From positions 1-42,920 of IMG/VR virus record IMGVR_UViG_2541047955_000001: 42,920 nt of DNA; one strand, written 5' to 3'. This document shows, piece after piece, positions 5,193 through 31,186 of this stretch. The stretch comes from a virus. Taxonomy: Duplodnaviria; Heunggongvirae; Uroviricota; Caudoviricetes. Position numbers and translations under genes: made by a program. The first letter of the stretch is position 1, and the number at the start of each line of letters is the position of its first letter. The notes under the pieces were generated by a model. The model made no database searches. It was not told where the DNA came from and saw nothing but the letters and a program-made list of their open reading frames with translations.

Positions 5193-5356
5193 TGGTTGCC
5201 TCCTTTACGCCACATCGCATTCAGATATTTGTTTTGATTCACTGATGGAAAAGAATTTCTCTTAAGCAATTCCTCTCTCGATGGCATTGGCTTTACGCGT
5301 TGGCGAATAATCATTTCTGCCGGAAGAATGCCTGGATTGTATGCAAGTCCTCTCAT
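5189..5356 (-). CDS. small hypothetical protein (55 aa)
   Basis: Not in track; [15 protein letters not shown]...; start overlaps the stop of the upstream gene (ATGA). Confidence 0.4.
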
Positions 5357-5643: not shown

Positions 5644-5653
5644 TGTTAATTCC

Positions 5654-5950: not shown

Positions 5951-5973
5951 AATGGAATCCTTATTTTTCTATA

Positions 5974-8480: not shown

Positions 8481-8614
8481 ATATCCTCCATCAAAAAAAT
8501 TGCCCTCACATCGGAGGGCAAAGAAGATTTCCAATAATCAGAACAAGTCGGCTCCTGTTTAGTTAAGAGCGACATTGCTCCGTGTATTCACTCGTTGGAA
8601 TGAATACACAGTGC

Positions 8615-8803
8615 TTATTCGTCATGCATTTCAGGTAATTCTTCGTATTCGACTCCCCATACGTTTTTACACCAACTAACTCGCTCATATCTTTTACAAA
8701 AATCAGACCACATAACTTGTGTTCCATCATGGTTTGTTATTATTTCTGTAATATCACCAACACTAACAAAACTGGTATTAGAAGCAGTTATTTTTACTTT
8801 CAT
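8615..8803 (-). CDS. hypothetical protein
   Basis: 62-aa ORF in the leftward early operon. Confidence 0.4.
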   Translation of the reverse strand: MKVKITASNTSFVSVGDITEIITNHDGTQVMWSDFCKRYERVSWCKNVWGVEYEELPEMHDE

Positions 8804-9123
8804 TACTTATCTCCAAGAGCTTTTCTGATTGCTGCAAGACCTTTATTAACAGCTCCATACCATTCTGGATATGTTGTCGTTGTTCTATTTTTGGTTTGCT
8901 TAAGTAGTAACTGAAGTGCTTCGAGAAGGTCAGGCGCTGCCGCTATTAGATTGGCATCTTCAATGCATTGAACTTCCTCACAGATTGCAATATACGAACG
9001 CCAGCCTGTGCCATTTTCAAGAGAGTCTGCCTGGATGATTTTAATCTCATCGCCATCCATCATTATTTCCCACTTACCTTCAGTACCTTTAAATTCCATG
9101 TTAGCCTCTGTTGTTTGTGCCAA
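8803..9123 (-). CDS. hypothetical protein
   Basis: 106-aa ORF, protein-like composition. Confidence 0.5.
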   Translation of the reverse strand: MAQTTEANMEFKGTEGKWEIMMDGDEIKIIQADSLENGTGWRSYIAICEEVQCIEDANLIAAAPDLLEALQLLLKQTKNRTTTTYPEWYGAVNKGLAAIRKALGDK

Positions 9124-9138
9124 AAATAAAGGCCACCA

Positions 9139-9390
9139 TCAGGCAGCCTTGTTGTAAATGTTGCAGGTATCAAGTAAGTAATTAGATGGAGCGCCATAAA
9201 TTATGAATTCATCGTTTGTCGGGTCCATCTCCATCTCTTGGCCTATTGCCATTCTTGCGTCAGTGTCATCAGAGGCGAAGCATAAAACAGCCCACGCACC
9301 CATTGTTTTAAAAAGAACTGCAATTGGCTGTGGTTTTACTGAATTTGCGTTAGCGCGAAAATCACAAATCGCACTTTCATGAAACTCCAT
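9139..9390 (-). CDS. hypothetical protein
   Basis: 83-aa ORF. Confidence 0.45.
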   Translation of the reverse strand: MEFHESAICDFRANANSVKPQPIAVLFKTMGAWAVLCFASDDTDARMAIGQEMEMDPTNDEFIIYGAPSNYLLDTCNIYNKAA

Positions 9391-9444
9391 ATATCACCTC
9401 AAATAAGTGGTTTGCTGCGAAAGTAAATACGCTTAAGTTACCTG

Positions 9445-9582
9445 TTATTTATCCCACCAAGTTCCGTATCTATCTATCCAGTTACACCAATCATCGACAC
9501 TCCATTTTGTTGTGTCGCATTTTGGCAACTGGCATGAATATCTACCTTCTTTGTAAAGTCGGCGTTTGACTTTCTTGAGCAT
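9445..9582 (-). CDS. small Cys-containing hypothetical protein (45 aa)
   Basis: Not in track; MLKKVKRRLYKEGRYSCQLPKCDTTKWSVDDWCNW...; GAGGTGAG RBS. Confidence 0.35.
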   Translation of the reverse strand: MLKKVKRRLYKEGRYSCQLPKCDTTKWSVDDWCNWIDRYGTWWDK

Positions 9583-9698
9583 GGCTCACCTCAATCGTAA
9601 TAAGTTGGAATTGATTTTCCGCGTTGCTTCTGGCGGCCTGAGCAAGTCACACCCATTTCACTGCGTGGCTTGCGGTAGTAAATTAGATTTGTTCAGAC

Positions 9699-9721
9699 AA
9701 TAAAAAACCCACCGAAGTGGG
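9699..9721 (-). terminator. intrinsic terminator (minus strand)
   Basis: Minus-strand hairpin CCCAC-TTCG-GTGGG followed by T6, directly after the 9722 stop. Confidence 0.55.
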
Positions 9722-10066
9722 CTATGACCATTTTTTATTTGGATTTCGTTGGTGAGCGTGATTAACAACTCTGTGCATTACATCCTCATATTTTTCATCT
9801 TCAATTTTTTCGACATCGCGAGGAAATGGTGTTGCTAATGCTTTGTCAACTTTATCCATTGGGTCTTCATTAATCTTATATTCAGGACCGTCATCTATAG
9901 CATTAAATCCAGGTGTTACACCGTTTTTTAATGCATATGCTATCCTCTTTTCCCATCTCGCTATTCTCCTCCTGTCTCGAGATGTAAGACCTCTATCAGA
10001 TACTTTTCTGTTTTGTCCGCGGTCAGGATTAACATAAATAGTCTTTTTCACCATAAGCATACTCAA
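9722..10066 (-). CDS. hypothetical basic protein
   Basis: 114-aa ORF, highly charged, immediately downstream of the N-like gene. Confidence 0.5.
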   Translation of the reverse strand: MSMLMVKKTIYVNPDRGQNRKVSDRGLTSRDRRRIARWEKRIAYALKNGVTPGFNAIDDGPEYKINEDPMDKVDKALATPFPRDVEKIEDEKYEDVMHRVVNHAHQRNPNKKWS

Positions 10067-10368
10067 TAAGCACCGTACGGTAGTTTACTGTACAATTTTA
10101 TTTTTTGGACTGCATGTATTTTGTTTCCTAATGGGTTTGAATCTTTGTAATAAATACTTCTATTTTTTCGAACGACTTCTTCTTTCTTCTTGCAGCAAAG
10201 GATTCCTAGTGATGCTGCTTTGTCTGCTTTGACGCAACCAGAGAGCTTTAGCGCAATTTTTCGCGCCAGTGCTTCATTACTGCGTCGCTCGGCAATAAGT
10301 TCTGCTCTGCGAGCTTTGTAGCGGCTTTTTGCCGTACCTTTGGATTCTTTCCAGACAATGGTTACCAT
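10063..10368 (-). CDS. N-like transcription antiterminator (P22 gene 24 position)
   Basis: Start at MVTIVW with AAAGGAGA RBS; N-terminal arginine-rich motif GTAKSRYKARRAELIAERR; first gene of the leftward operon next to c2. Confidence 0.55.
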   Translation of the reverse strand: MVTIVWKESKGTAKSRYKARRAELIAERRSNEALARKIALKLSGCVKADKAASLGILCCKKKEEVVRKNRSIYYKDSNPLGNKIHAVQKIKLYSKLPYGAY

Positions 10369-10660
10369 GATGGTCTCCTTTAAGTGGCTTTGGCGCATGA
10401 CGCGTCGAGGTGCTTATCTTCTCGATCGCTGTCTTGCAGCTGCAATTCGCGCCATCCCCAAAACCACTCAAGTTCTGGTCTCAACGGTTAGGTTGAGAGT
10501 CCGTCGATGTTAAAGAGCCTGCCAATCTGTTCCGTTTGGCTTCCAGCGTCCTGCTGATGGCTTAAATTTAAGACTTCTTAATTTATTGGTCAAGTGCATT
10601 TTTGAAGAAAACTTAATTCTATGGGCGTGAATTTAGTTTGTCTTTGATTTTTAACGGGAA

Positions 10661-10682
10661 ATAAAAAAGGGGCGAAAGCCCC
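10661..10682 (-). terminator. intrinsic terminator after c2 (minus strand)
   Basis: Hairpin GGGGC-TTTC-GCCCC followed by T-run on the minus strand, immediately 3' of the c2 stop. Confidence 0.6.
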
Positions 10683-11333
10683 TTAAGGAAGGTTTGCTAG
10701 CTTGGCATCAACGACAACGCCAATGATTTTACAGTTCCCATTGATTTCAATCATTGGGTATTGTGGATTGAGTGGTTTCAGGAATTTTCTACCGGCATCA
10801 ATAACTAACTTTTTGAATGTCGCCTCGTTTTCTCCTTCAAGTTTGGCGACTACCAGCTTTCCATTACGTGGTTCGACTTCTGGGTCGACGAGAATAATCA
10901 TCCCCTCAGGAATACTCAGTCCTGCCGGGGCAGTCATTGAATCGCCTTTAACGTCGAGCCAAAAAGAGTCTTCAGAACAATCTACCGTTGTGTCGTACCA
11001 GTTATCTATTGCACGCCTATGATATGGCTCTACAGCTTCCATCCAACATCCTGCGCTTACCCAACTAATTAGAGGATACGAACCTCTTGGATCATGCCTG
11101 CTGTGATAGGCAATGTTTGAAAGACTATCCTCTCCTTTCAACAGGTAATCAGGGGAGCACTGCAAAGCCTTGGCTAAGGCCAATAGGTTTTCGCCATTGG
11201 GCTCAGTTTCAGATCGCTCCCATTGGGAAATAGCAACATTAGACACGCCAACCATCTTGCCAAGGGCAGCCTGCCTAATCTTGAGTTCTTTTCTGCGAGC
11301 GCGAATACGCTCACCCATCAGTTGTGTATTCAT
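10683..11333 (-). CDS. c2: C2 repressor (CI analogue, LexA/S24-like C-terminus)
   Basis: 216 aa, near-identical to P22 C2 as recalled (MNTQLMGERIRARRK...IIGVVVDAKLANLP). Confidence 0.95.
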   Translation of the reverse strand: MNTQLMGERIRARRKELKIRQAALGKMVGVSNVAISQWERSETEPNGENLLALAKALQCSPDYLLKGEDSLSNIAYHSRHDPRGSYPLISWVSAGCWMEAVEPYHRRAIDNWYDTTVDCSEDSFWLDVKGDSMTAPAGLSIPEGMIILVDPEVEPRNGKLVVAKLEGENEATFKKLVIDAGRKFLKPLNPQYPMIEINGNCKIIGVVVDAKLANLP

Positions 11334-11413
11334 AGTTAAGACATCTTAAATAAACTTGACTTAAGATTCCTTTGGTGGATAATTTAAGTGTTCTTTAATT
11401 TCGGAGCGAGTCT
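11334..11413. promoter_or_regulatory. OR operator region with divergent PRM and PR
   Basis: Between divergent c2 and cro; P22-type operator half-sites (ATTTAAGTGTTCTTTAAT) and TTGACT-16 nt-GATAAT promoter toward cro. Confidence 0.6.
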
Positions 11414-11599
11414 ATGTACAAAAAAGATGTTATTGACCACTTCGGAACCCAGCGTGCTGTTGCTAAAGCACTAGGCATTAGCGATGCAGCAGTCTCTCAG
11501 TGGAAAGAAGTTATCCCAGAGAAAGACGCCTATCGATTGGAAATCGTTACAGCTGGCGCCCTGAAGTATCAAGAAAGTGCTTACCGCCAAGCGGCATAA
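11414..11599 (+). CDS. cro: Cro repressor
   Basis: 61 aa; HTH QRAVAKALGISDAAVSQW; divergent from c2. Confidence 0.9.
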   Translation: MYKKDVIDHFGTQRAVAKALGISDAAVSQWKEVIPEKDAYRLEIVTAGALKYQESAYRQAA

Positions 11600-11714
11600 G
11601 CAAATTGCTCTTTAACAGTTCTGGCCTTTCACCTCTAACCGGGTGAGCAAACATCAGCGGCAAATCCATTGGGTGTGCCGCTATAACTCAATATCAATAT
11701 AGGAAAATTAACAA

Positions 11715-12011
11715 ATGGCACAAGCAAGCTACAGCAAGCCAACCCAGCGAGAAATTGATCGCGCTGAAACTGATTTACTCATCAACCTGTCAACGCTTAC
11801 CCAGCGCGGTCTGGCAAAGATGATTGGCTGTCATGAATCGAAGATAAGCAGAACGGACTGGAGATTTATTGCTTCGGTCTTGTGTGCTTTCGGAATGGCA
11901 TCAGACATCAGTCCGATTAGCAGGGCTTTTAAGTATGCGCTTGATGAAATCACAAAGAAAAAATCCCCGGCCGCCACCGAGGATTTTAAGCAAATTGATA
12001 TGCAATTCTGA
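11715..12011 (+). CDS. CII-like transcriptional activator (P22 c1 position)
   Basis: 98 aa; resembles lambda CII in HTH and C-terminus (KKKSPAATE...QIDMQF). Confidence 0.7.
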   Translation: MAQASYSKPTQREIDRAETDLLINLSTLTQRGLAKMIGCHESKISRTDWRFIASVLCAFGMASDISPISRAFKYALDEITKKKSPAATEDFKQIDMQF

Positions 12012-12043
12012 GGGAATTACTGGATCAATCCACAGGAGTAATT

Positions 12044-12205
12044 ATGACAAAACGTCGTAAGAAATACCAGGAAAAAGAAGAGATTCGACACCCTGATTCA
12101 CCTGAGGGATTAGTGGTAGCCGCAGCAAATAACAGGGCGTTCGCAGAGCGCCTTGTTGGTGTTTACAGACTAGCCAAAGCAGGAGTGAAACATGGGCGTC
12201 GTTAA
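12044..12205 (+). CDS. small hypothetical protein (53 aa)
   Basis: Not in track; MTKRRKKYQEKEEIRH...; AGGAG RBS 6 nt upstream; overlaps the O-like start. Confidence 0.4.
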   Translation: MTKRRKKYQEKEEIRHPDSPEGLVVAAANNRAFAERLVGVYRLAKAGVKHGRR

Positions 12206-13022
12206 GTTAGCTGATTACAGGCCTCAACTGGAGGTCGTGGAGCATCGCGTGGCAGAACTCGAAGATGGCTACACTCGGACTGCAAACACACTGTTAGAAG
12301 CCGCCATGCTTTCTGGACTTACTCTACATCAGTTACTGATTGTTATGGCTGTGTGGCGCAAGACATACGGTTACAACAAAAAAATAGATTGGATCGGAAA
12401 CGAACAGTTCGCTGAACTCACTGGCATGGCACCAACCAAATGCTCTACCGCCAAAAACGAGCTTATCAGAATGGGAGTTCTCATTCAGGTGGGGCGTCAA
12501 GTTGGTATGAATACAAACATTTCCGAGTGGAAAACGAAAGTTAACGGATTCGGTAAAACATTTACCAATTCGGTAAAACAAACCTTCACCAAATCGGTAA
12601 AAAGCAATTTACCGAATCAGTCAAACACAAAAGACAATATACAAAAGACAATAAATACAAATACCCCCTTACCCCCTAACGGGGGCGGCGATGGGCAGGT
12701 TAAACCTGAACGTCGCAAGGCAGAACGAATCGACTACGAATCCTTCCTGAACGCCTACAACACCGAAGTCGGTGACAGACTTCCACACGCTGTTGCGGTC
12801 AACGAGAAACGAAAACGCCGCCTGAAGAAAATCATCCCGCAACTGAAAACGCCAAACGTGGACGGTTTCAGAGCGTATGTCAGGGCGTTTGTGCATCAGG
12901 CCAAGCCGTTTTACTTCGGAGACAACGACACGGGCTGGACGGCTGATTTTGATTACCTGCTGAGAGAAGACTCGTTAACGGGAGTTCGGGAAGGGAAGTT
13001 TGCAGACAGGGGGATTGCATGA
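12192..13022 (+). CDS. replication initiator, lambda O-like (P22 gene 18)
   Basis: 276 aa; contains the origin iterons internally; followed by an overlapping helicase gene. Confidence 0.85.
12546..12665 (+). repeat. replication origin: iterons plus AT-rich tract
   Basis: Three direct TTCGGTAAAACA-type repeats and an inverted TTTACCGAAT copy, then AT-rich aaagacaatatacaaaagacaataaatacaaata. Confidence 0.6.
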
Positions 13023-14395
13023 GACAGGATATCGAAGCGAGCGTTATCGGTGGCCTGCTGATTGGTGGATTAACTCCAACCGCCAGTGACGTTCTGGCAA
13101 CGCTGGAGCCGGAAGCGTTTTCAATTCCGCTCTACCGGAAAGCCTTCGAGGTTATTCGCAAGCAGGCGAGAAACAGAAACCTAATCGATGCGCTGATGGT
13201 TGCCGAGGCGTGCGGAGAGGAGCATTTCACGTCAATCCTGATGACCAGCAAAAACTGCCCGAGTGCCGCAAACCTGAAGGGATATGCCGGAATGGTCGCG
13301 GATAACTATCACCGCCGTCTGGTGCTGGAAATCATGGATGAAATGCGTGAACCAATCCAAAGCGGAACCATCGACGCATCGAGTCAGGCGATGGATGAAC
13401 TTGTAAAGCGTCTTTCAGCCATCAGAAAGCCCCGTGACGAGGTTAAACCTGTACGGTTAGGGGAAATCATCACTGACTACACTGACACGCTTGACAGGCG
13501 TCTGAGGAACGGAGAAGAGTCAGATACCCTGAAGACCGGAATCGACGAACTTGACGCCATCACCGGAGGGATGAACGCGGAAGACCTTGTGATAATCGCC
13601 GCTCGTCCTGGTATGGGGAAAACCGAACTGGCGCTGAAGATTGCCGAAGGCGTTGCAAGCCGCGTTATTCCTGGTTCTGACGTCCGGCGCGGGGTATTGA
13701 TTTTCTCAATGGAAATGAGCGCATTGCAGATTGCAGAGCGAAGCATTGCCAACGCCGGGAGGATGTCGGTTAGCGTACTGCGAAATCCTGCATCGATGGA
13801 TGACGAAGGCTGGGCGCGTGTTGCTAACGGCATGAGTCAGCTTGCAGATTTGGATGTATGGGTAGTCGATGCCTCGCGGTTATCGGTCGAAGAAATTCGC
13901 TCAATCGCAGAGCGGCACAAACAGGAAAATCCAAACCTGTCACTCATCATGGCGGATTATCTTGGCCTGATTGAGAAGCCGAAAGCAGACCGCAACGACC
14001 TCGCAATTGCTCACATCTCCGGAAGCCTGAAGGCGATGGCGAAAGACCTGAAAACACCGGTTATCTCCCTGAGTCAGCTTTCGCGCGATGTTGAGAAGCG
14101 ACCAAACAAACGCCCGACAAACGCAGATTTGCGTGATTCAGGAAGCATTGAGCAGGACGCAGACTCAATCATCATGCTCTATCGGGAAGCGGTATATGAC
14201 GAGAACAGTAGCGCCGCGCCATTTGCTGAAATCATCGTGACGAAAAACCGTTTTGGCTCGCTTGGTACGGTTTACCAGCGGTTCTGCAACGGACACTTTG
14301 TTGCATGTGACCAGGATGAAGCCAGACAGATTTGCACAGCATCAAATGCGCCTGCTGCGCGTGGCAGACGATATGCACAAGGGGCGGACGTATGA
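13019..14395 (+). CDS. DnaB-type replicative helicase (P22 gene 12)
   Basis: 458 aa; Walker [15 protein letters not shown] and DnaB-type C-terminal domain. Confidence 0.9.
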
Positions 14396-17344: not shown

Positions 17345-17529
17345 ACGCCACAATTCAAACGATACCAGAGCTTCTTATCCAGACACGAGGCAATCAGACC
17401 GAAGTGGCGAGGATGCTTTCCTGCGCAAGAGGAACGGTGCTCAAGTACAACCGAGACAGCAAAGGCGAACGTCACGTAATAGTTAACGGCGTCCTGATGG
17501 TCAAACAGGGCAAGAGAGGAAGACGATGA
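17341..17529 (+). CDS. ninH: NinH
   Basis: 62 aa; GNQTEVARMLSCARGTV HTH resembles lambda NinH. Confidence 0.7.
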   Translation: MNATIQTIPELLIQTRGNQTEVARMLSCARGTVLKYNRDSKGERHVIVNGVLMVKQGKRGRR

Positions 17530-18014
17530 GCATAAGAGAACTAAACCTCACCAAAGAACAGCACGAGTGGCTGAATGGCTGGCTTGAACTGTGGGGCGCA
17601 TGGGTTTATTCAGGTCGTCTGGAAAAGCGCATGAGCAGCGTAATAGCGAAGTTCATGGAGAGCGTAGAGCCGGGAAGAGTTATGACAAGGCCAATGTGTA
17701 ATGATGATGATGGAATGTTGATTTCTCAGGTCGTCGATTCCGTCATGTACATTGACAAGAAAGCCTTTGGAATCCTCCTCAGCTACTACGCTCATGGCTC
17801 TTCCAAGCACGCCATTGCATCTTACTATCATCGCGTCGCAAGACCTCGCAAGATGTTATGCCGGGGCGGCGGGCGCATTCAAAAACCATCGCTCGCAACC
17901 TGTCGACGGGAAGTTGACGAAATCCTCAATGCCTCGTTGTTTATGATTTACCCGGTTCTGGATAGTGCGTTTAAAAACCGGAAACGTGTAGAGAAAATTA
18001 AACATGTAGCATAG
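17526..18014 (+). CDS. late-gene antiterminator Q (P22 gene 23 type)
   Basis: 162 aa; last gene of the nin operon, immediately upstream of a promoter/terminator and the lysis cassette. Confidence 0.7.
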   Translation: MSIRELNLTKEQHEWLNGWLELWGAWVYSGRLEKRMSSVIAKFMESVEPGRVMTRPMCNDDDGMLISQVVDSVMYIDKKAFGILLSYYAHGSSKHAIASYYHRVARPRKMLCRGGGRIQKPSLATCRREVDEILNASLFMIYPVLDSAFKNRKRVEKIKHVA

Positions 18015-18060
18015 AACGTGTTGACATCATTGAGCAAATGAGCAACACTATTCGCATAAG
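18015..18060 (+). promoter_or_regulatory. putative late promoter PR' / Q-utilisation region
   Basis: TTGACA at 18020-18025 right after the Q stop; position equivalent to lambda PR'. Confidence 0.35.
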
Positions 18061-18061
18061 C

Positions 18062-18100
18062 TGCCGTTAGTGACTCTTAAGTTGCAACGGTGGCTTTTTT
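18062..18100 (+). terminator. putative tR'-like terminator
   Basis: CCGTT...AACGG stem and GC-rich segment followed by T7 (tggcttttttta). Confidence 0.4.
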
Positions 18101-18105
18101 TATTT

Positions 18106-18180
18106 GGGTCAGTCGTATAAAGGTCATTACGGAAGGCTGTTAACCTTCTTATCGTGGTTCGAGTCCACGCTGTCCCGCCA
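18106..18180 (+). tRNA. tRNA-like, Asn (GUU) anticodon, imperfect stems
   Basis: 75 nt ending CCA; anticodon stem GAAGG/CCTTC, loop CTGTTAA; T-loop TTCGAGT; one T-T mismatch in acceptor and D stems. Confidence 0.45.
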
Positions 18181-18185
18181 AATAT

Positions 18186-18261
18186 GCTGGTTTAGCTCCA
18201 ATGGTAGAGCGGTCGCCTTGTAAGCGAATGGGTAGCGGTTCAAGTCCGTTAACCAGCACCA
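18186..18261 (+). tRNA. tRNA-Thr (UGU)
   Basis: 76 nt; 7-bp acceptor stem GCTGGTT/AACCAGC; D stem GCTC/GAGC; anticodon loop CTTGTAA; T-loop TTCAAGT; 3' CCA. Confidence 0.6.
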
Positions 18262-18503
18262 TAACTGAGCCGTAGCCACTGGCTATCCTGAATTCATCAG
18301 TGATAGTTACGCTGCGGCCTTCTACACATGACCTTCGTGAAAGCGGGTGGCAAGAGGCTGCGCTAACAACCTCCTGCCGTTTTGCCCGTGCATATCGGTC
18401 ACGAACAAATCTGATTACTAAACACAGTAGCCTGGATTTGTTCTATCAGTAATCGACCTTATTCCTAATTAAATAGAGCAAATCCCCTTATTGGGGGTAA
18501 GAC

Positions 18504-18827
18504 ATGAAGATGCCAGAAAAACATGACCTGTTAGCCGCCATTCTCGCGGCAAAGGAACAAGGCATCGGGGCAATCCTTGCGTTTGCAATGGCGTACCTTC
18601 GCGGCAGATATAATGGCGGTGCGTTTACAAAAACAGTAATCGACGCAACGATGTGCGCCATTATCGCCTGGTTCATTCGTGATCTTCTCGACCTCGCCGG
18701 ACTAAGTAGCAATCTCGCTTATATAACGAGCGTGTTCATCGGCTACATCGGTACTGACTCGATTGGTTCGCTTATCAAACGCTTCGCTGCTAAAAAAGCC
18801 GGAGTAGAAGATGGTGGAAATCAATAA
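18504..18827 (+). CDS. S: holin, lambda S type with dual-start motif
   Basis: 107 aa [39 protein letters not shown]... near-identical to lambda S as recalled. Confidence 0.95.
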
Positions 18828-19287
18828 TCAACGTAAGGCGTTCCTCGATATGCTGGCGTGGTCAGAGGGAACTGATAACGGACGACAGAAAACCAGAAAT
18901 CATGGTTATGACGTCATTGTAGGCGGAGAGCTATTCACTGATTACTCCGATCACCCTCGCAAACTTGTCACGCTAAACCCCAAACTCAAATCAACAGCAG
19001 CCGGACGTTACCAGCTTCTTTCCCGTTGGTGGGATGCCTACCGCAAGCAGCTTGGCCTGAAAGACTTCTCTCCGAAAAGTCAGGACGCTGTGGCATTGCA
19101 GCAGATTAAGGAGCGTGGCGCTTTGCCGATGATTGATCGTGGTGATATTCGTCAGGCAATTGACCGTTGCAGCAATATCTGGGCTTCACTGCCGGGCGCT
19201 GGTTATGGTCAGTTCGAGCATAAGGCTGACAGCCTGATTGCAAAATTCAAAGAAGCAGGCGGAACGGTCAGAGAGATTGAGGTATGA
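18811..19287 (+). CDS. R: endolysin, lambda R lytic transglycosylase
   Basis: 158 aa [39 protein letters not shown]... near-identical to lambda R as recalled. Confidence 0.95.
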
Positions 19288-19751
19288 GCAGAGTAACCGC
19301 GATTATCTCCGCTCTGATTATCTGCATCATCGTCTGTCTGTCATGGGCGGTTAATCATTACCGTGATAACGCCATCGCCTACAAAGAACAGCGTGATAAA
19401 AAAGTCAGTGAGCTGAAGCAGGCGACTGTCACCATTACTGACATGCAGCAACGCCAGCGTTCTGCTGATGCACTCGATGCTAAATACACGAAGGAGTTAG
19501 CTGATGCGAAAGCTGAAAATGATGCTCTTCGGCGCAAGCTTGATAATGGTGGTCGGGTGTTCGTCAAAGGAAAATGCCCTGTGCCATCCTCAGACGAAAC
19601 CTCCAGCGCCTCCGGCATGGGCAATGATGCCACCGTCGAACTCTCTCCAGTTGCTGGACGAAACGTTCTCGGTATCCGGGACGGAATCATCAGAGACCAG
19701 ACAGCACTGAGAACGCTTCAGGGATACATCAGGACGCAATGCCTTCGATGA
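19284..19751 (+). CDS. Rz: i-spanin Rz
   Basis: 155 aa; N-terminal [32 protein letters not shown]... like lambda Rz; C-terminus divergent. Confidence 0.9.
19504..19710 (+). CDS. Rz1: o-spanin Rz1 embedded in Rz (+1 frame)
   Basis: 68 aa; lipobox VVGC and proline-rich KPPAPPAW segment; nested inside Rz. Confidence 0.8.
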
Positions 19752-20198
19752 TAGCGATAATTTTACTCATCATCCTTCACATCTGGCTCTGTAGACAGGG
19801 TGGTGATCACTTCTGGAGTGAATCCAGATTAAACATCTCATTGCTGATGCTTGAAGTTGAGCATCTGGCGCGCGGTAAGGGGCTGCGTTGAGATAAGAGC
19901 CAGTTCATTACAAAGCCTATCTACGGGTGGGCTTGATAATGAAACCGGAATTTATTCTGGGAAACCAGTTACGGCAGTACAGCGAAACAACCCAAGCCAG
20001 TAAGTGGGGAAATAACACTGGCAGCCACTGAAAGATGAACCTCCTGCCTTATGGCAAAAAAGATTCTTTGTGGTGGCGGACTGATGGAAAGACATCGGTT
20101 ATTGCAGAGGCCATTCAATGAGTGGTCTCGACAATGGCTTATACCCTACACGGGATAACTTAACTGATATCCCTTTTAACGGATAAACGGAGCCAACA

Positions 20199-20441
20199 AT
20201 GGCAGAGATTATTCCCATGACTGAAGAACAGAAATTCCAGTTAGAGATTTACAAACTGGTCATGAACCAGAACGCAGCCGCAGAAGAGGCATTTCAGTTC
20301 ATTGGCACTGACGAGCTGAAGCTTGAGCTATTCAAAATTCACTTCCAGTCAGGTGGCGCTAATTCAGATATCACGATCCGCACATTTGAAGCTGTGCGTA
20401 AATCGAAGGAAGCGTTAGACCTGTTCACTACCGGAGCATAA
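20199..20441 (+). CDS. hypothetical protein
   Basis: 80-aa ORF between the lysis cassette and the small terminase. Confidence 0.5.
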   Translation: MAEIIPMTEEQKFQLEIYKLVMNQNAAAEEAFQFIGTDELKLELFKIHFQSGGANSDITIRTFEAVRKSKEALDLFTTGA

Positions 20442-20520
20442 ACATGGCAACTCAAGGTTTCGACAACCCATCCAAATTCCGCGATGAATGGGATAAGCAA
20501 GCAGAAGGGAAATAATCAAT

Positions 20521-21009
20521 ATGGCAGCACCAAAGGGCAACCGATTTTGGGAGGCCCGCAGTAGTCATGGGCGAAATCCTAAATTCGAATCGCCTGAGGC
20601 GCTGTGGGCTGCTTGTTGTGAATACTTCGAGTGGGCTGATGATAACCCGCTATGGGAGGGTAAGGTATTTTCATATCAGGGAGAAATAATTAAGGCTAAT
20701 GTCCCTAAGATGCGAGCCATGACTATTTCAGGATTGTGTACCTTCCTTGATATCACCAGGCAAACATGGGGAACCTTCCGGTCAATGGAAGGTTTTTCTG
20801 ACGTCACATCACGAGCGGAAGACATCATCTACGACCAGAAATTCTCTGGCGCAGCCGCTGACCTTCTCAACGCTAACATCATCGCCCGTGATTTGGGCCT
20901 CAAAGAGCAGTCGCAAGTTGAAGACGTGACACCTGATAAGGGAGATCGCGATAAGCGACGCTCTCGTATCAAGGAGCTATTCAACCGTGGAACTGGACGC
21001 GATTCTTGA
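20521..21009 (+). CDS. terminase small subunit (P22 gp3 type)
   Basis: 162 aa; N- and C-termini match P22 gp3 as recalled. Confidence 0.9.
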
Positions 21010-22486
21010 TAACCTGAGCGACGAAGAGCAAATCGAATTGCTCGAGCTACTCGAAGAAGAAGAGAACTACCGTAACACACACCTGCTATATGAATTTACG
21101 CCATACAGCAAACAGCGTGAGTTCATCGACGCCGGGCATGACTATCCAGAGCGCTGTTTTATGGCTGGTAACCAGCTTGGTAAGTCATTTACTGGTGCTG
21201 CTGAAGTCGCGTTTCACCTTACCGGGCGTTATCCGGGCACAAAAGGCTATCCTGCTGATGGTAAATATGGCGGTGAGTGGAAAGGTAAGCGTTTCTATGA
21301 GCCTGTTGTCTTCTGGATTGGTGGAGAGACAAACGAGACTGTAACCAAAACGACTCAACGCATCCTGTGCGGTCGTATCGAAGAGAATGGTGAGCCAGGC
21401 TACGGTTCCATACCGAAAGAGGACATCATTAGCTGGAAGAAGTCTCCTTTCTTTCCGAACCTTGTTGATCATCTTCTGGTTAAGCATCACACGGCTGATG
21501 GCGTTGAAGATGGCATTTCAATCTGCTACTTCAAACCATACTCGCAAGGCCGTGCTCGCTGGCAGGGTGACACAATCCACGGAGTGTGGTTTGACGAAGA
21601 ACCACCATACAGCATTTATGGCGAAGGGCTTACCCGTACCAACAAATACGGGCAATTCTCAATTCTGACGTTTACCCCGCTGATGGGGATGTCTGACGTT
21701 GTTACCAAGTTCCTGAAGAACCCCAGCAAGTCGCAGAAAGTGGTCAACATGACCATCTATGACGCTGAGCACTATACCGACGAGCAGAAAGAGCAAATCA
21801 TCGCATCCTATCCAGAGCATGAGAGAGAGGCGCGTGCTCGCGGTATTCCTACGATGGGTAGCGGTCGAATCTTCCAGATACCGGAAGAGACGATTAAGTG
21901 TCAGCCGTTCGAGTGTCCTGATCACTTCTACGTAATTGGTGGGATGGATTTCGGATGGGATCACCCTCAGGCGCAGGTTCAGCTTTGGTGGGATAAGGAC
22001 GCAGACACAATCTACGTTTCACGCGTGTGGAAGGCGAAAGAAAAGACAGCCGTTCAGGCGTGGGGAGCTGTTAAATCATGGGCGCATAAAGTGCCAACCG
22101 CATGGCCTCATGACGGAAACCAGCATGAGAAGGGCGGCGGTGAGCAGCTTAAAGGGCAGTACGCGGACGCTGGTTTTATGATGTTGCAGGAGCATGCGAC
22201 ATGGCCTGATGGCGGTAATGCTGTTGAGCCTGGCATCACTGAATTGCGAGACATGATGCTCGACGGTCGCTTCAAAGTATTCAACACCTGTGAGCCATTC
22301 TTTGAGGAGTTCCGCCTCTATCACCGTGATGAAAACGGGAAAATCGTCAAGCTTAACGACGACGTGCTATCCGCCGTTCGCTATGCATACATGATGCGCC
22401 GCTTCGCAAAAATGATGCGCGACATCAAAAAACCAAAAGAGAAAAAGATACCAGCCCCAATCAGGCCCATCGCACGGAGAACTTAA
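20987..22486 (+). CDS. terminase large subunit (P22 gp2 type)
   Basis: 499 aa; Walker A GNQLGKS; overlaps terS by 23 nt as in P22. Confidence 0.95.
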
Positions 22487-24652
22487 ATGGCCGACGAAAA
22501 CAGACTCAATTCCATTCTGTGTAAGTTTGACGCAGACTGGATGGCGAGCGATGAAGCCAGAACCGAGGCGACAAATGACCTGTATTTTAGCCGAGTGTCG
22601 CAATGGGATGACTGGCTATCAAACTACACGACTCTGCAATATCGCGGACAATTCGATGTTGTTCGCCCGGTGGTCAGGAAACTGGTCGCAGAGATGCGCC
22701 GGAACCCTATCGACGTTCTCTTCCGACCCAAAGACGGCGCTAATCCTGATGCTGCCGATGTGTTGATGGGGATGTATCGTACTGATATGCGCCATAACAC
22801 GGCAAAGATTGCCGTTAACGTTGGCGTTCGTGAGCAGATAGAGTCCGGCGTTGGTGCATGGCGTCTGGTCACGCAGTACGAAGACAACGATCCAACAAGC
22901 AACAATCAGGTAATCCGACGCCTTCCAATCCATGAAGCCTGCTCACACGTCATATGGGACGCCAATAGCAAGCAGATGGATAAGAGCGACGCTAAGCACT
23001 GCACGATGATTAACGCTTTGTCACGCAATGGCTGGAAAGAGTTCGCAGAGGATTACGGTATTGATCCGGATACCTTGCCATCTTTCCAGAATCCGAACGA
23101 TACATGGCTGTTCCCTTGGGTATCGAATGATGTCGTCTACGTCGCTGAGTATTACGAGGTCGAAGAGAAGAAAGAGAAGGTCTTCATCTACCGCGACCCG
23201 CTGACAGGTGAGCCGGTCAGCTATTACCAGCAGGATATCAAAGACGTCATCGACGACCTGGCTAATCGTGGATTCATTAAGGTAGCAGAGCGCAAGGTGA
23301 AGCGTCGGCGTGTGTATAAGTCGATCATCACCTGCACGCAGATACTGAAAGACCGCGAGAAGATAGCCGGAGAGCATATTCCAATCGTTCCAGTGTATGG
23401 CGAATGGTCATTCGCTGGTGACAAGGAGTGCTACGAAGGAGTGGTAAGGCTGACGAAAGACGGTCAGCGCCTTCGTAACATGATCATGTCATTCAACGCC
23501 GATATTGTTGCTCGTTCACCGAAGAAGAAACCGACCTTCTTCCCTGAGCAAATCGAAGGCTACGAATACATGTACGGTGGAAATGATGACTATCCGTACT
23601 ATCTGCAGAACAGGACCGATGAAAACGGTAACGACCTGCCGATTGGTCCAATCTCCTACATGGAAAACCCTGAAGTGCCGCAAGCCAACGCTTACATGCT
23701 TGAGGCTGCCACCAACGCAGTGAAAGAGGTGGCTAGTCTTGGTGTGGATGCGCAGGCGGCAAATGGTCAGGTCGCTTTCGATACCGTCAATCAACTGAAC
23801 ATGCGGGCAGACCTTGAGACATACGTGTTTCAGGATAACCTGGCTACCGCAATGCGACGTGATGGCGAGATTTATGCCTCAATGGTCAACGATATTTATG
23901 ACGTTCCTCGTCATGTAACGCTGACACTTGAAGATGGAAGCGAGAAAGACGTTCAACTCTACGCGCAAGTTGTAGATTACCAGTCCGGTAATGTGGTCAC
24001 ACTCAACGACATTCGCGGTCGCTATGAGTGCTATACAGACGTTGGGCCATCCTTCCAGAGTATGAAGGAACAGAACCGCGCAGAGATTCAGGAATTGCTC
24101 ACTAAGGTTCCGCAAGGTACTCCAGAGTTCCAGATGCTGATGCTGCAATACTTCACGCTGCTTGACGGTAAAGGCGTCGAGATGATGCGAGAGTACGCTA
24201 ACAAGCAACTGGTGATGATGGGGCTGAAGAAACCAGAAACACCTGAAGAGATGGAGATGGTACAGCAGGCACAACAACAGCCGCAGCAGCCATCAGCAGA
24301 GCAAATTCAGGCGCAGGGTATCCTTCTGCAAGGTCAGGCTGAATTGCTCAAGGCAGAGAACCAACAGGCGCAGATTCAGGTTGAAGCCGCCAAGGTTGAA
24401 GCCCAAAACCAACTCAACGCCGCGAAGATTGCAGAAATCTTTAACAATATGGACCTCGACAAGCAGGCAGAACTGCGTGAGTACCTCAAGCTCGTAGGTC
24501 AATTCCAGCAACAGCGCAGCAAAGATGCTCGTGCTAACGCTGAGCTGCTTCTTAAAGATGCAGACCAGACTCATTCACAACGCATGGATTTCGCGAATCT
24601 TATGCGTCAAGTTCAAATCCCCTCCGGCGGAGTAGCCGAGACACCTCAATAA
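22487..24652 (+). CDS. portal protein (P22 gp1 type)
   Basis: 721 aa; strong similarity to P22 portal along the whole length as recalled, including Gln-rich C-terminal barrel. Confidence 0.95.
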
Positions 24653-24665
24653 GAGAGAGTTAATC

Positions 24666-25577
24666 ATGGACCAAACCACCGACATTCAGGCTTCTGAAGA
24701 ATTAACCCTGCCCGGCAATCATGCAGCGGCATCTGCTGATGGCTTAGTTGTCGATAATGCCAACGACAACGCAGGTCAGGAAGAAGGCTTCGAGATTGTC
24801 CTGAAAGACGATGAGAAACCAAAACAAGACCCGGCAACTAATGCTGAATTTGCCCGTCGCCGCATCGAACGCAAACGCCAGCGTGAGCTTGAGCAGCAGA
24901 TGGAAGCGGTTAAGCGTGGAGAGTTGCCGGAGCACCTGCGGGTGAACCCTGAGTTACCAAAACAACCAGACCCTAACGATTATCTTTCCGAAGATGCACT
25001 GGCTAAGTACGACTATGACCAGAGCCGCGCACTGGCTGCCTTCCAGCAGGCAAACAGTGAATGGCAGATCAAGGCTATGGACGCACGAAGCCAGGCTGTC
25101 GCCGAGCAGGGTCGCAAAACTCAGGAGTTCACCCAGCAATCAGCGCAATACGTCGAGGCTGCTCGTAAGCACTACGATGCAGCGGAAAAGCTCAATATCC
25201 CTGACTATCAGGAGAAAGAGGATGCATTCATGCAACTGGTGCCGCCAGCAGTTGGTGCCGACATCATGCGCCTCTTCCCGGAGAAATCCGCCGCTCTCAT
25301 GTATCACCTTGGTGCTAATCCTGAGAAAACACGCCAGTTGCTGGCGATGGACGGGCAATCCGCGCTGATTGAACTCACTCGACTGTCAGAACGTTTAACT
25401 CTCAAGCCTAGAGCCAAGCCTGTTTCAGAAGCCCCGTTACCTGATGAACCCATTCAGGGACACGCTGTTGCTGCAAATATCTCTGCGATTGAAAAGCAGA
25501 TGGAGGCGGCAGCAAACAAAGGGGATGTAGAGACGTACCGCAAGCTCAAGGCGCAACTGAATAAAGGAATTCGATAA
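24666..25577 (+). CDS. scaffolding protein (P22 gp8 type)
   Basis: 303 aa; matches P22 gp8 as recalled. Confidence 0.9.
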
Positions 25578-26872
25578 TGGCATTAAATGAAGGTCAACTG
25601 GTCACGTATGCTCTGGATGAAATCATCGAAACCGTCCAGAACCTGACGCCAATGGCGTCCAAAGTGACAAAATACACCCCTCCGGCAGAATCCATGCAAC
25701 GTTCAAGCAACACCGTGTGGATGCCTGTTGAGCAGGAAGCGCCAACCCAGACTGGCTGGGATTTAACTGGCAATGCAACCGGGATTCTGGAACTCTCCGT
25801 GAAATGCAACATGGGCGATCCGGATAACGATTTCTTCGAGCTTCGTGCAGATGACCTGCGTGATGAGCGTTCTTACCGTCGCCGCATCCAGGCATCCGCC
25901 AAAAAACTGGCGAATAACATTGAGTCAGCGATTGCCAAACAGGCAACTGAAATGGGCTCGCTTGTTGTTCACGATACCCGCGCAATTGGTCCATCTACTG
26001 GCCTGTCTGGCTGGGATTTTGTGTCTGATGCAGAGCGCCTGATGTTCTCCCGTGAGCTAAACCGCGATATGGGCATCAGTTACTTCCTGAACCCTGACGA
26101 TTACCGCAAAGCAGGCCGCAACCTGGTAGATGGTGACATCTTCGGGCGCGTTCCTGAAGAAGCGTATCGCAACGGTACTATTCAGCGTCAGATTGCTGGC
26201 TTTGATGAAATTCTTCGCTCACCGAAACTTCCGGCAGTTACCAAGTCAACCGCTACTGGTGTAACTGTTTCTGGTGCGCAGAAGTTTAAGCCGCAGGCAT
26301 ACACCCTTGATACCGATGGTAACAAAGAGAACGTCGACAACCGTGTTGCAACGGTGACCGTATCCTCCACCACCGGGTTTAAGCGCGGCGACAAAATCAG
26401 CTTCACTGGTGTGAAATTCCTGTCTCAGATGGCGAAGAACGTGCTGACTGATGATGCGACTTTCTCAATCACCCGTGTGATCGATGGTACTCACATCGAA
26501 ATCACGCCGAAGCCGATTGCGCTTGATGACGCTTCACTGACAAAAGAAGAGAAGGCTTACGCTAACGTAAACACCTCTCTTGCTGATACCACTCCGGTAA
26601 ACGTTCTGAACGTGGCAACAACCACCGCTAACGTGTTCTGGGCTGATGACTCAATCCGTCTGCTGTCTCAGCCGATCCCGGTAACCCATGAACTGTTTGC
26701 TGGCATGAAAACGTCTTCCTTCAGCATTCCTGGTATTGGTGTTAACGGCATCTTCGCAACGCAGGGTGATATCAACACTCTGTCTGGTAAGTGCCGTATT
26801 GCTGTGTGGTATTCAGCATGTGCTGTACGGCCAGAGGCAATTGGTGTTGGTCTGCCTAATCAGACCGCGTGA
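25577..26872 (+). CDS. major coat protein (P22 gp5 type)
   Basis: 431 aa; matches P22 coat protein as recalled. Confidence 0.95.
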
Positions 26873-26880
26873 TAACCAGA

Positions 26881-26903
26881 GGGAGCTTCGGCTCCCTTTT
26901 TAT
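26881..26903 (+). terminator. intrinsic terminator after the coat gene
   Basis: Hairpin GGGAGC-TTCG-GCTCCC followed by TTTTTAT. Confidence 0.6.
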
Positions 26904-26915
26904 CTGGAGACAAGC

Positions 26916-27177
<262 letters not shown>

Positions 27178-27200
<23 letters not shown>

Positions 27201-27678
27201 TTTAGTTCTTGCGGCATTACGTAAGCTCGGTGTGGCATCAAATGCCACGTTAACCGATGTCGAACCGCAGTCTATGGAAGACGGCGTCAACGACCTTGAA
27301 ATGATGATGGCTGAATGGCTTGGCGGTGATGCGTCACCTGGTATCAACGTTGGCTACATTTTCGCTGATGCAGATGTCGCTCCAGATCCTGGCGATGAAC
27401 ACGGTTTATCAAATAACGCTATCAATGCCGTCATTTTCAACCTTGCCTGCCGCATTGCTCCGGATTATGCGCTGGAAGCGTCTGCAAAACTTATAACCAC
27501 TGCCAGATACGGGAAAGAGCGACTCGTCAAACTGTCTGCAATGGACAGAGCAAAAGCCGCTAAATGTAAGTCCGGTTATCCAAACCGTATGCCTGTTGGT
27601 AGCGGTAACAAGTTGGCGAAGTGGAACGGTTGGAATTACTTCCACCGAAAGGAACCTTGCGATAACGGGAGCGAATAA
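27178..27678 (+). CDS. head-completion / tail accessory protein gp4
   Basis: 166 aa from internal ATG; [30 protein letters not shown]... matches P22 gp4 as recalled. Confidence 0.85.
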
Positions 27679-29096
27679 TGCCGATTCAGCAACTTCCGCT
27701 TATGAAAGGTGTCGGCAAAGACTTTAGAAACGCTGACTATATCGACTATATGCCAGTGAATATGCTGGCTACACCCAAAGAAATACTCAACAGCAGCGGA
27801 TATCTTCGCTCATTCCCGGGCATTGCCAAACGTTCTGATGTGAACGGTGTATCTCGCGGCGTCGAGTACAACATGGCGCAGAGTGCTGTTTATCGCGTGT
27901 GTGGTGGCAAGCTGTACAAAGGAGAAAGTGAAGTCGGTGATGTTGCCGGAAGTGGTAGAGTATCAATGGCGCATGGTCGGACATCACAGGCGGTAGGCGT
28001 TAATGGTCAACTGGTCGAGTATCGTTATGATGGCGCGGTCAAAACCGTCTCAAACTGGCCTACAGACAGCGGATTCACGCAGTATGAGTTAGGCTCGGTC
28101 CGCGACATTACGCGCTTACGTGGGCGTTATGCGTGGTCAAAAGACGGAACTGATTCATGGTTTATCACTGACCTTGAAGACGAATCGCATCCTGACCGCT
28201 ACAGCGCACAATATCGCGCAGAATCGCAGCCGGACGGCATCATCGGCATAGGTACATGGCGAGACTTCATCGTCTGCTTTGGTTCATCGACGATTGAGTA
28301 TTTTTCCCTGACTGGTGCAACCACCGTTGGTGCTGCTTTGTATGTCGCCCAGCCATCGCTGATGGTGCAGAAAGGCATTGCCGGAACTTACTGCAAAACG
28401 CCGTTTGCTGATTCGTATGCGTTTATCAGCAATCCGGCAACGGGTGCGCCGTCTGTATACATCATCGGCTCCGGTCAGGTATCACCAATCGCCAGCGCGA
28501 GCATTGAGAAAATTCTTCGCTCCTACACTGCTGATGAACTGGCTGATGGCGTGATGGAATCTCTGCGATTTGATGCGCATGAGTTGCTGATTATCCACCT
28601 TCCGCGCCATGTTCTTGTTTACGACGCATCTTCAAGCGCCAATGGTCCGCAATGGTGTGTGTTGAAAACTGGCCTGTATGACGATGTGTACCGCGCTATC
28701 GACTTCATTTACGAAGGCAATCAGATAACGTGCGGCGATAAGCTGGAGTCCGTGACCGGGAAATTGCAATTCGATATCAGCAGCCAGTACGACAAGCAAC
28801 AGGAACACCTGTTGTTTACTCCGTTGTTCAAAGCAGATAACGCCAGAGTTTTCGACCTTGAGGTTGAGTCGTCAACTGGAGTTGCGCAGTATGCTGACCG
28901 CCTTTTTCTCTCTGCAACCACTGACGGCATCAATTACGGGCGTGAGCAGATGATTGAGCAGAATGAACCGTTCGTTTACGACAAACGCGTTTTGTGGAAG
29001 CGTGTCGGGCGCATCAGGAAAAATGTCGGCTTCAAATTGCGCGTTATCACGAAGTCACCTGTCACTCTGTCTGGTTGCCAGATAAGGATTGAGTAA
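27678..29096 (+). CDS. tail accessory protein gp10
   Basis: 472 aa, same size as P22 gp10; N-terminus [24 protein letters not shown]. Confidence 0.85.
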
Positions 29097-30049
29097 TGGC
29101 TGATTCGAATCTCAATGAGCCGGTAACAATTCAGGCTACACGACTCGATACATCAATCCTTCCACGCAATATCTTCTCACAGTCGTATCTACTTTACGTT
29201 ATCGCACAGGGCACTGATGTTGGTAACGTGGCTAACAAGGCCAACGAAGCAGGGAAGGGGGCTTATGATGCACAGGTGAAGAATGATGAGCAGGATGTCA
29301 CCCTTGCAGACCATGAATCCAGAATTGAAGCTGCTGAAGCAACTCTCATCAATCATGAAAATAGAATTGCAGCAGCGGAAAGCACTCTTGCAGATCATGA
29401 AACAAGGATTACGGCTGCTGAAACAGAGCTGGCTGATCACGAGACGCGAATTGCTGCCAATGAATCTGAGTTAGCAAACCATGATGCGCGCATAACTCAG
29501 AATACAACTGATATCGACGCACTTGATACCAGGCTCACAGCGGCAGAGGGAAGTATTTCGACGCTACAAAGCACAGTTGGTGATCACTCAACAAGAATAT
29601 CTGCGCTTGAGTATGCCACCACGCGCAAGAAATCAGAGGTTGTTTACTCAGGAGTATCAGTAACCATTCCAACAGCGCCGACCAACCTTGTTAGCCTACT
29701 GAAAACGCTCACGCCGTCATCCGGCACGTTGGCACCATTCTTCGACACCGTTAACAACAAGATGGTTGTGTTCAACGAGAACAAAACCTTGTTCTTCAAG
29801 CTGGCGATCGTCGGGACGTGGCCCAGCGGAACAGCCAACAGGTCAATGCAGCTAACCTTTTCCGGCTCTGTTCCTGACACACTGGTAAGCAGCCGCAACT
29901 CGGCGACAACGACCGATAACATCCTGTTAGCTACGTTCTTCAGCGTGGATAAAGACGGCTTTCTTGCCACAAATGGCAGTACGTTAACCATTCAGTCGAA
30001 TGGTGCGGCGTTTACTGCCACAACCATCAAAATCATTGCGGAGCAGTGA
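29096..30049 (+). CDS. tail needle gp26 with extended C-terminal domain
   Basis: 317 aa; conserved needle N-terminus [25 protein letters not shown]; coiled-coil repeats; ~90 extra C-terminal residues vs P22 gp26. Confidence 0.8.
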
Positions 30050-30528
30050 TGGAAATAAAGCTCATCGATAATCCGGTGAAGCTTGCAGAATTCCTCAACA
30101 ACCCGGCAAACACGGGAAATATCGTAGACAGTGGAGATAAATACTACATCAAGCCTGATGCGGTATATCTCGGCATCTACGAAGGATTAGTGCTGGCTGG
30201 GGTTCATGAAGTGCGTAACTTCTGGCATAGCGTTGTTGAATGCCATGCTGTGTACGACCCCGGATTCCGAGGCGAATATGCACTGCAAGGGCATCGATTA
30301 TTCTGCAAATGGCTTCTCGAAAACTCACCATTCCTTAACAGCATCACCATGGTTCCTGACATCACCAAATACGGACGGGCAATTATCCGTTTGCTTGGCG
30401 CTACCCGTGTTGGTCACCTTGATGATGCTTATACCAGCAATGGAAAGCCTGTAGGCATCACGATTTATCAGTTACCGCGCTCAAAATACGAGGAGCTAAA
30501 GAATGTTAATTTTCCAGATTGCCAATAA
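30046..30528 (+). CDS. gp14-position protein
   Basis: 160 aa; assignment by synteny (after gp26, before gp7) only. Confidence 0.45.
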
Positions 30529-31177: not shown

Positions 31178-31186
31178 GGTGGGAAT

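Follow-up and report, generated by a model that had tools for sequence, protein, structure and literature searches.

A lambdoid lysis cassette of patchwork ancestry in a P22-like prophage at Escherichia coli thrW

Related lysis cassettes

Six Salmonella P22-like phages have been described as carrying holins of three non-homologous types and lysins of three types (epsilon34 paper, PMC2629481), and in phage Kapi1 two tRNAs lie ahead of the holin–lysin–Rz genes (PMC8787464). With regard to the spanins, one lambda i-spanin family (83 members) is partnered by several o-spanin families, of which the HK97 (P22 included), lambda and HK620 families are the chief ones, and these o-spanin families are mutually distinct (Kongari 2018, PMC6139136). 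The HK620 o-spanin family lists, among others, HK620, SE1, ST104, SPN3UB, mEp460, Gifsy-1 and SPN9CC, and the pairing of a lambda i-spanin with an HK620 o-spanin has already been catalogued (Kongari et al. 2018, PMC6139136).

Here we analyse the lysis genes of a P22-like prophage contained in IMG/VR virus record IMGVR_UViG_2541047955_000001 (hereafter the window, that is, the whole stretch of 42,920 nucleotides that was analysed). The phage records closest to it all belong to Lederbergvirus (vB_EcoP-611R6, Kapi1 and HK620). Phages HK620, Kapi1, 611R6, JEP4 and APC_JM3.2 have a P22-like podovirus genome, the same gene order and overlaps, lambda-type S and R genes and a hybrid Rz with an HK620-type Rz1. 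This arrangement is said to have been known since HK620 was sequenced by Clark et al. in 2001. In the HK620 record (AF335538 / NC_002730), S and R carry the note “similar to bacteriophage lambda” and Rz the note “similar to Rz protein of bacteriophage PS119”, which describes the mosaic found here.

The cassette is therefore no peculiarity of one genome, given that it recurs in, among others, HK620, Kapi1, 611R6, JEP4 and (for S and R) Sf101. Over its full 1248 nt it is 95.4–97.1% identical in HK620, Kapi1, 611R6, 683R2, phiv205-1, APC_JM3.2 and JEP4. Of 5426 complete E. coli genomes, 235 cover at least 80% of the 3-kb stretch from Q through the tRNAs, S and R to Rz, and 5100 contain parts of it. 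The cassette, which is the usual one in the P22-like phages of E. coli and Shigella, is already known and is a case of ordinary lambdoid mosaicism.

On the basis of the comparisons below, we consider it very probable that the window holds a complete, apparently functional lambdoid four-gene lysis cassette within an intact P22-like prophage at E. coli thrW, and that this cassette and its surroundings form a patchwork of alleles. The patchwork can be envisioned as a phage-21-type control unit (Q, pR′, tR′, tRNA-Asn and tRNA-Thr; 17511–18323), a lambda-type piece comprising the leader, S, R and Rz codons 1–83 (18263–19531), an HK620/SE1-type piece comprising the C-terminal half of Rz with the embedded mature Rz1 (approximately 19531–19716) and a common segment downstream of approximately 19716, with the alleles presumably drawn from the shared lambdoid gene pool.

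The prophage and its late control region

The window is a piece of the E. coli chromosome that carries a prophage of approximately 40 kb; the insertion lies in thrW, a neighbour of proA. In the chromosomal flank lie proA (1–1254) and the insertion site thrW, which encodes tRNA-Thr(cgt) (1369–1444), and this proA/thrW flank is 100% identical to that of, for instance, Nissle 1917 and ATCC 25922. Direct att repeats of 48 bp (1399–1446 and 41423–41470) bound the prophage, which carries an integrase gene on the minus strand (1459–2619). By blastn, P22 is collinear from the small terminase, portal, scaffold and coat genes through to gene 16 (window 20515–34397), with P22 positions 4–13273 aligning with window 20788–34397, and further matches fall at c2–cro and at the replication genes 18 and 12. 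The gp3 domain PF16677 was found, and the tailspike begins with the P22 head-binding domain (PF09008, Head_binding). The collinear packaging, head and ejection genes and the head-binding tailspike bear out the P22-like character that the genome had been assigned in a first-pass annotation. The accompanying description of everything outside the cassette as P22-like, however, holds for the virion, immunity and replication modules but not for the segment directly upstream of the cassette, where the stretch from Q and pR′ through tR′ to the two tRNAs shows 99% identity to phage 21.

The late-gene antiterminator in that segment is of the phage 21 type (Q21; 17526–18014, plus strand, 162 amino acids, PF06530), matching the phage 21 Q protein in PDB entries 6JNX and 6P18 (E ~1e-108) and being 99.0% identical in nucleotides to phage 21 (OL657228). 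Identity to phage 21 is 98.5% over 17511–18323 and 100% over 18015–18110. From the annotated phage 21 sequence we transferred, all on the plus strand, the −35 element of the late promoter pR′ (18021–18026), the Q-binding elements ATTGAGCA/AATGAGCA (18029–18044), the pR′ −10 element (18044–18049), the transcription start (approximately 18056) and the terminator tR′ (18058–18105); a generic scan for sigma-70 promoters and terminators missed both pR′ and tR′. Between tR′ and the holin, the late transcript includes tRNA-Asn(gtt) (18106–18180) and tRNA-Thr(tgt) (18186–18261), both on the plus strand and both called by ARAGORN and by Rfam model RF00005, with which they score 55 and 61 bits. An Rfam scan of 17900–20600 returned nothing but these two tRNAs, so that the leader gave no match to a known RNA element.

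This control region also separates the prophage from its relatives. The tRNA-Asn/tRNA-Thr pair is annotated in phage 21, SfI, Sf6 and Kapi1, and in Kapi1 it lies at the same distance of 243 nt upstream of S, whereas 611R6 is without the two tRNAs. HK620 and Kapi1 have a lambda-type Q (624 nt) in place of the Q21 found here. In phage 21, the lysis genes under the Q21 control unit encode a pinholin and a SAR endolysin, whereas here the unit stands before lambda-type S and R; relative to lambda, in turn, the prophage differs in its phage-21-type Q and pR′, in the two tRNAs between tR′ and S and in having no bor downstream. Phage 21 and lambda both have the stretch 18263–18323, which, on the evidence of these alignments, is likely to be the left junction of the cassette mosaic.

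Holin and endolysin

An ORF check of the window recovered the four lysis genes exactly as the first-pass annotation had delimited them, all on the plus strand: the holin gene S (18504–18827, 107 amino acids), the endolysin gene R (18811–19287, 158 amino acids), which overlaps S by 17 nt, the i-spanin gene Rz (19284–19751, 155 amino acids), the start of which overlaps the R stop as ATGA, and the o-spanin gene Rz1 (19504–19710, 68 amino acids), which lies wholly within Rz in the +1 frame (Rz codons 74–143), its embedding having been noted from the outset. In megablast and blastn searches, lambda matches window 18263–19531 as one uninterrupted block with 95.4% nucleotide identity (E = 0). Global alignments of the four proteins with their lambda and P22 counterparts, from which the protein identities are taken, gave 98.1% for S against lambda and 88.0% against P22 gp13, 98.7% for R against lambda and 17.8% against P22 gp19 (a forced global alignment), 59.6% for Rz against lambda and 51.9% against P22, and 40% for Rz1 against lambda and 29% against P22. 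All four genes are thus closer to lambda, and the opposite outcome, a greater similarity to the P22 lysis genes, was seen in none of them. That S and R are essentially those of lambda, as had been proposed, is confirmed by 105 of 107 and 156 of 158 identical residues, respectively.

The two substitutions in S are F64L and R105G, and glycine at position 105 also occurs in HK620 and Sf101. The protein passes the NCBIfam equivalog model TIGR01594 (holin_lambda; 125.6 bits against a cut-off of 55.05) and PF05106 (103.8 bits against 23.8), and a crude hydropathy scan places lambda S-like hydrophobic stretches at residues 9–30, 40–68 and 61–79; the Kapi1 orthologue is annotated with three transmembrane helices. 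The dual start Met1-Lys2-Met3 (MKMPEK...) can be read straight from the sequence, with the S107 antiholin starting at Met1 (18504) and the S105 holin at Met3 (18510), both on the plus strand. Upstream of S lies a lambda-type leader (18263–18503, plus strand; lambda homology starts at 18263), and directly before the two S start codons, in the position of the lambda sdi structure, it contains the hairpin AUCCCC-UUAUU-GGGGGU (18482–18498, plus strand). Both the hairpin and the dual start are identical in lambda, and the pairing of the hairpin is kept with different sequences in P22, HK620 and SE1. The hairpin appears in the predicted fold of 18470–18540, the fold energy of which is not significant (z-score −0.23), and the argument for an sdi-type hairpin accordingly draws on the identity to lambda and the pairing kept in P22, HK620 and SE1 rather than on fold energy.

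Contrary to the earlier statement that P22 uses a different holin, P22 gp13 shows 88.9% identity to lambda S and 88.0% to the prophage S, and it has the same dual start; the P22 record itself annotates 13 and 13′ as the equivalents of S107 and S105. As a literature search yielded no quotable statement on P22 gene 13 in relation to lambda S, we base the assignment of gp13 as a lambda-type holin on our own alignments and on the note in the P22 record. P22 resembles the prophage further in its four-gene order and in its embedded Rz1.

The endolysin R differs from both lambda R and the lambda lysozyme in PDB 1AM7 at two of 158 residues (G63A and D157E; E 2.6e-105), and it retains the catalytic Glu19 in the context ...AWSEGTD.... 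Neither Pfam nor NCBIfam holds a model that matches R; given its 98.7% identity to the characterized enzyme, we infer that R is a lambda-type lytic transglycosylase of the PDB 1AM7/3D3D family. R is predicted to be soluble and to need the holin for its release. The viable phage HK620 encodes exactly the same R protein (100% identity), and among the codons that differ, 11 of 13 changes against lambda and all 18 of 18 against HK620 are synonymous; such an almost wholly synonymous pattern indicates purifying selection.

The endolysin of P22, gp19, is a muramidase of the T4 lysozyme type. Here the difference drawn at first pass between P22 and the lambda-type R stands, as the two are unrelated (18% identity when forced into alignment, and no blastn match between R and gp19). 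Judged by these alignments, the endolysin is the only true non-homologous swap relative to P22.

Spanins

Rz passes PF03245 (97.2 bits against a cut-off of 25.4), has its sole hydrophobic stretch at the N terminus (within residues 1–27) and possesses two periplasmic cysteines, Cys98 and Cys153, that match Cys99 and Cys152 of lambda; a PDB sequence search found no Rz relative. Rz1 passes PF06085 (75.6 bits against 27.9) and, as the first-pass annotation had remarked, keeps its lipobox (VVGC, with the lipobox cysteine being Cys19 and a non-Asp residue, Ser, at +2). The mature Rz1 is a proline-rich protein of 50 residues, seven of them proline. Lambda Rz1 has its start at the corresponding position and is likewise embedded in the +1 frame, whereas its mature form has 41 residues.

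Identity of Rz to lambda is 83% over residues 1–83 and 33% thereafter. The observation that Rz leaves lambda in its C-terminal half was correct in this respect, but the C-terminal half, HK620/SE1-type over codons 84–155, is not a drifted lambda copy: its identity is 90–92% to HK620, SE1 and SPN3UB, as against 33% to lambda and 36% to P22. The embedded gene shows the same affinities, with the mature Rz1 having 94% identity to SPN3UB (95.6% over the whole protein annotated in SPN3UB) as against 33% to lambda and 30% to P22; with a mature identity of 33%, it falls outside the lambda o-spanin family (lambda, 21, 933W and others). The C-terminal half of Rz and Rz1 together constitute, by these comparisons, a distinct third allele, that of the HK620 o-spanin family, which recombination appears to have brought in. 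In SE1, this Rz/Rz1 allele follows an unrelated holin (67 amino acids) and a SAR-like or other endolysin (167 amino acids), and in SPN3UB the N-terminal membrane segment of Rz is different as well. Sf101 has the same S and R but a P22-type Rz/Rz1.

The P22 spanin had also been listed as different. We find instead that gp15 and P22 Rz1 are diverged members of the same Rz spanin family, the P22 alleles of Rz and Rz1 being 52% and 29% identical to those of the prophage. Given the 88% identity of P22 gp13 to S, the 83% nucleotide identity to P22 of the leader (18333–18499) and S, and an Rz tail (…YIRTQCLR) that is nearer to that of P22 gp15 (…YIRSQCLK) than to that of lambda, one could ask whether the cassette is truly of the P22 type (13/19/15/Rz1) and lambda-like in looks only. 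We regard this as extremely improbable, because no similarity between R and P22 gp19 could be detected, each of the four proteins obtains its better score with lambda, not P22, and the Rz C-terminal half and mature Rz1 show only the low P22 identities given above. Identity as a P22 lysis cassette was ruled out on the same grounds, there being no gp19-type endolysin and no P22/HK97-type Rz1, with the holin alone shared.

Mosaic junctions within Rz

The change from lambda-type to HK620/SE1-type sequence falls in a conserved patch (19470–19531) that is the likely crossover site. This patch, which is conserved in both parental types, encodes 19 Rz residues together with the ribosome-binding site, the start codon and the first residues (MRKLKMML) of Rz1. 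In 40-nt sliding windows across 19484–19560, identity to lambda drops from 98% to 55% while identity to SE1 climbs from 70% to 98%, and the blastn homology to lambda stops at 19531; the crossover is thus located just upstream of the mature Rz1 sequence. A second conserved junction (19716–19751) begins at approximately 19716, six bases past the Rz1 stop: the segment 19716–19900 is 96–98% identical to Sf101, epsilon34 and mEp213, which carry the P22/HK97-type Rz1, and the matches in question covered only query positions 217–401, that is, window 19716–19900. From the sequence changes at both junctions, the variable unit corresponds approximately to mature Rz1 plus the overlapping Rz codons. As the junctions lie in short stretches that are common to the parental types, they are as expected of homologous recombination at conserved patches.

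Among 10 genomes, three classes of Rz C-terminal half can be told apart, each accompanied by a single Rz1 class; the first 83 residues are for the most part common to all, and members of each allele class are more than 90% identical. The class pairing is trivially expected, as both halves of the pair lie on the same DNA: Rz codons 74–143 and Rz1 are the same nucleotides read in two frames, such that any change can alter both proteins and the residue-level co-variation of the pair that had been suggested as a check is inseparable from the frame overlap. Between Rz and its counterparts in HK620 and 611R6, nonsynonymous changes are about as frequent as synonymous ones, a ratio that is expected of overlapping genes and is inseparable from relaxed constraint. 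Together, the shared DNA and a crossover just upstream of mature Rz1 suggest that the Rz C-terminal half and Rz1 are inherited as one cognate unit. A speculative reading, if a more modest one than that given below for the small ORF after Rz, would make 19531–19716 a self-contained, exchangeable spanin-interface unit between conserved crossover patches. Further upstream, Rz codons ~31–62 represent an allele that is common to 611R6 and Kapi1 and absent from HK620.

These data also bear on how the lambda-type piece reached the prophage. Taken strictly, the module exchange proposed at first pass would mean a recent, direct transfer of S, R and Rz from lambda into this prophage, and the nucleotide identities of S (98.5%) and R (97.1%) to lambda and the single uninterrupted block of lambda homology (18263–19531) might be read in this way. 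However, S and R are equally near in nucleotides to HK620 (98.8 and 96.2%), Sf101 (99.4 and 96.2%) and 611R6 (99.1 and 97.5%), the whole cassette, including the non-lambda Rz C-terminal half and Rz1, is widespread in P22-like phages and E. coli genomes, and Rz codons 1–82 are only 86.6% identical to lambda in nucleotides. We therefore hold a recent transfer to be very unlikely; as S and R are as near to those of P22-like phages as to those of lambda, the combination is better seen as a long-circulating one that predates the prophage.

A small ORF after Rz

Overlapping the end of Rz on the plus strand is a conserved ORF of 50 amino acids with a hydrophobic N terminus (19739–19891; phrog_11822, E 8.6e-38), the alternative start of which (ATG at 19748) overlaps the Rz stop as ATGA. 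By tblastn, it directly follows Rz in 44 phage records, in all of which it is at least 90% identical, and it does so whichever Rz1 allele the lambdoid phage carries; it is annotated in Kapi1, Sf101, 611R6 and epsilon34. The ORF is only a possible part of the cassette, and we give only a small chance to the idea that it is an unrecognized fifth component or regulator of lysis.

Proposed course of lysis

Near-identity to the lambda and phage 21 systems, the workings of which are established knowledge, suggests how the cassette may operate. Q21 would load onto RNA polymerase paused at pR′ and thereby allow readthrough of tR′ into the tRNAs and lysis genes. The S105 holin and the S107 antiholin would then build up in the inner membrane until, at a programmed time, large holes form, through which the soluble R transglycosylase may reach the periplasm and cleave the murein. 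Finally, Rz–Rz1 complexes, once freed by the cutting of the wall, would fuse the inner and outer membranes.

Such a course presupposes a working cassette. The two amino-acid changes each in S and R relative to lambda, and the many replacements in Rz relative to its closest relatives, could instead be taken as signs of a decaying, non-working cassette in a defective prophage. We rate this as highly unlikely, given that the four frames are intact with their start–stop overlaps preserved, that nothing has been lost of the dual start, catalytic Glu19, lipobox or periplasmic cysteines, that substitutions in R are overwhelmingly synonymous and that the R protein is the same as that of a viable phage (HK620). 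The surrounding prophage, too, is equipped with an att site at either end, an integrase and a complete, collinear virion module. An apparently functional cassette thus remains our preferred reading.

Implications

With regard to annotation, Rz1, which is not annotated in the HK620, Kapi1 and 611R6 records, should be added to them, and it would be wrong to credit P22 with a holin unlike that of lambda, since it is in the endolysin and the spanin allele that the two truly differ. Beyond correct annotation the importance of the locus is small: it presents a late region in which pieces of phage 21, lambda and Salmonella phages are joined at short conserved patches. The chimeric Rz suggests that the membrane anchor and first coiled-coil region of lambda Rz may tolerate a foreign C-terminal half if the cognate Rz1 comes along, and such tolerance would agree with published spanin work.

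Late control unit

The region 17511-18323, which comprises the Q gene, the pR' promoter with its Q-binding elements, the terminator tR' and a tRNA-Asn(gtt)/tRNA-Thr(tgt) pair, is 98.5-99% identical to phage 21, rising to 100% across 18015-18110, and the Q protein matches PDB entries 6JNX and 6P18. We therefore assign this unit to the phage 21 type, although the prophage itself is P22-like. Among the phages with the closest lysis cassettes, HK620 and Kapi1 differ in this respect and carry a Q of the lambda type. The tRNA-Asn/tRNA-Thr pair is absent from 611R6 (vB_EcoP-611R6).

Rz, Rz1 and the adjacent reading frame

Within Rz, codons of about 31-62 (19374-19473) show only 70-80% identity to lambda, HK620 and SE1 (a Salmonella phage with the HK620-type Rz1 allele), while 611R6 and Kapi1 have, at the protein level, the same middle stretch as the prophage. 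Judged from these alignments, the stretch represents an additional small mosaic patch within the first coiled-coil region. The records of HK620, 611R6 and Kapi1 all contain an intact embedded Rz1 gene (68 aa, +1 frame, lipobox present), which is left unannotated in each of the three. Overlapping the end of Rz on the plus strand is a 50-aa open reading frame (19739-19891) with a hydrophobic N-terminus and a match to phrog_11822, for which ATG 19748 is an alternative start that overlaps the Rz stop codon as ATGA. This frame lies immediately 3' of Rz in 44 phage records, at an identity of at least 90% in all and regardless of the Rz1 allele; its carriers include Sf6 (gene 65), epsilon34 (gp67), CUS-3, mEp460 and mEp213.

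Tailspike and right flank

The 904-aa tailspike (38374-41088, plus strand) combines an N-terminal P22 head-binding domain with a Peptidase_S74 domain near the C-terminus (that is, the endosialidase-type intramolecular chaperone domain), and the endosialidase catalytic domain gives only a weak match. Directly past attR (41423-41470) lies a 112-aa open reading frame with an integrase arm-DNA-binding domain (PF13356; within 41423-41961), which by its appearance is either the beginning of a further integrated element at thrW or a remnant there. A MarR-family regulator frame on the minus strand (42396-42920) is incomplete at the window end.

Leader of the holin gene

The non-coding segment immediately 5' of the holin S start (18333-18499) is kept in lambda, P22, HK620 and SE1, the last of which retains its equivalent despite an unrelated holin of 67 aa. 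A hairpin precedes the holin start codon, its pairing preserved and its stem sequences different in P22, HK620 and SE1. This leader may have two roles, one in the control of translation and one as a linker for recombination.
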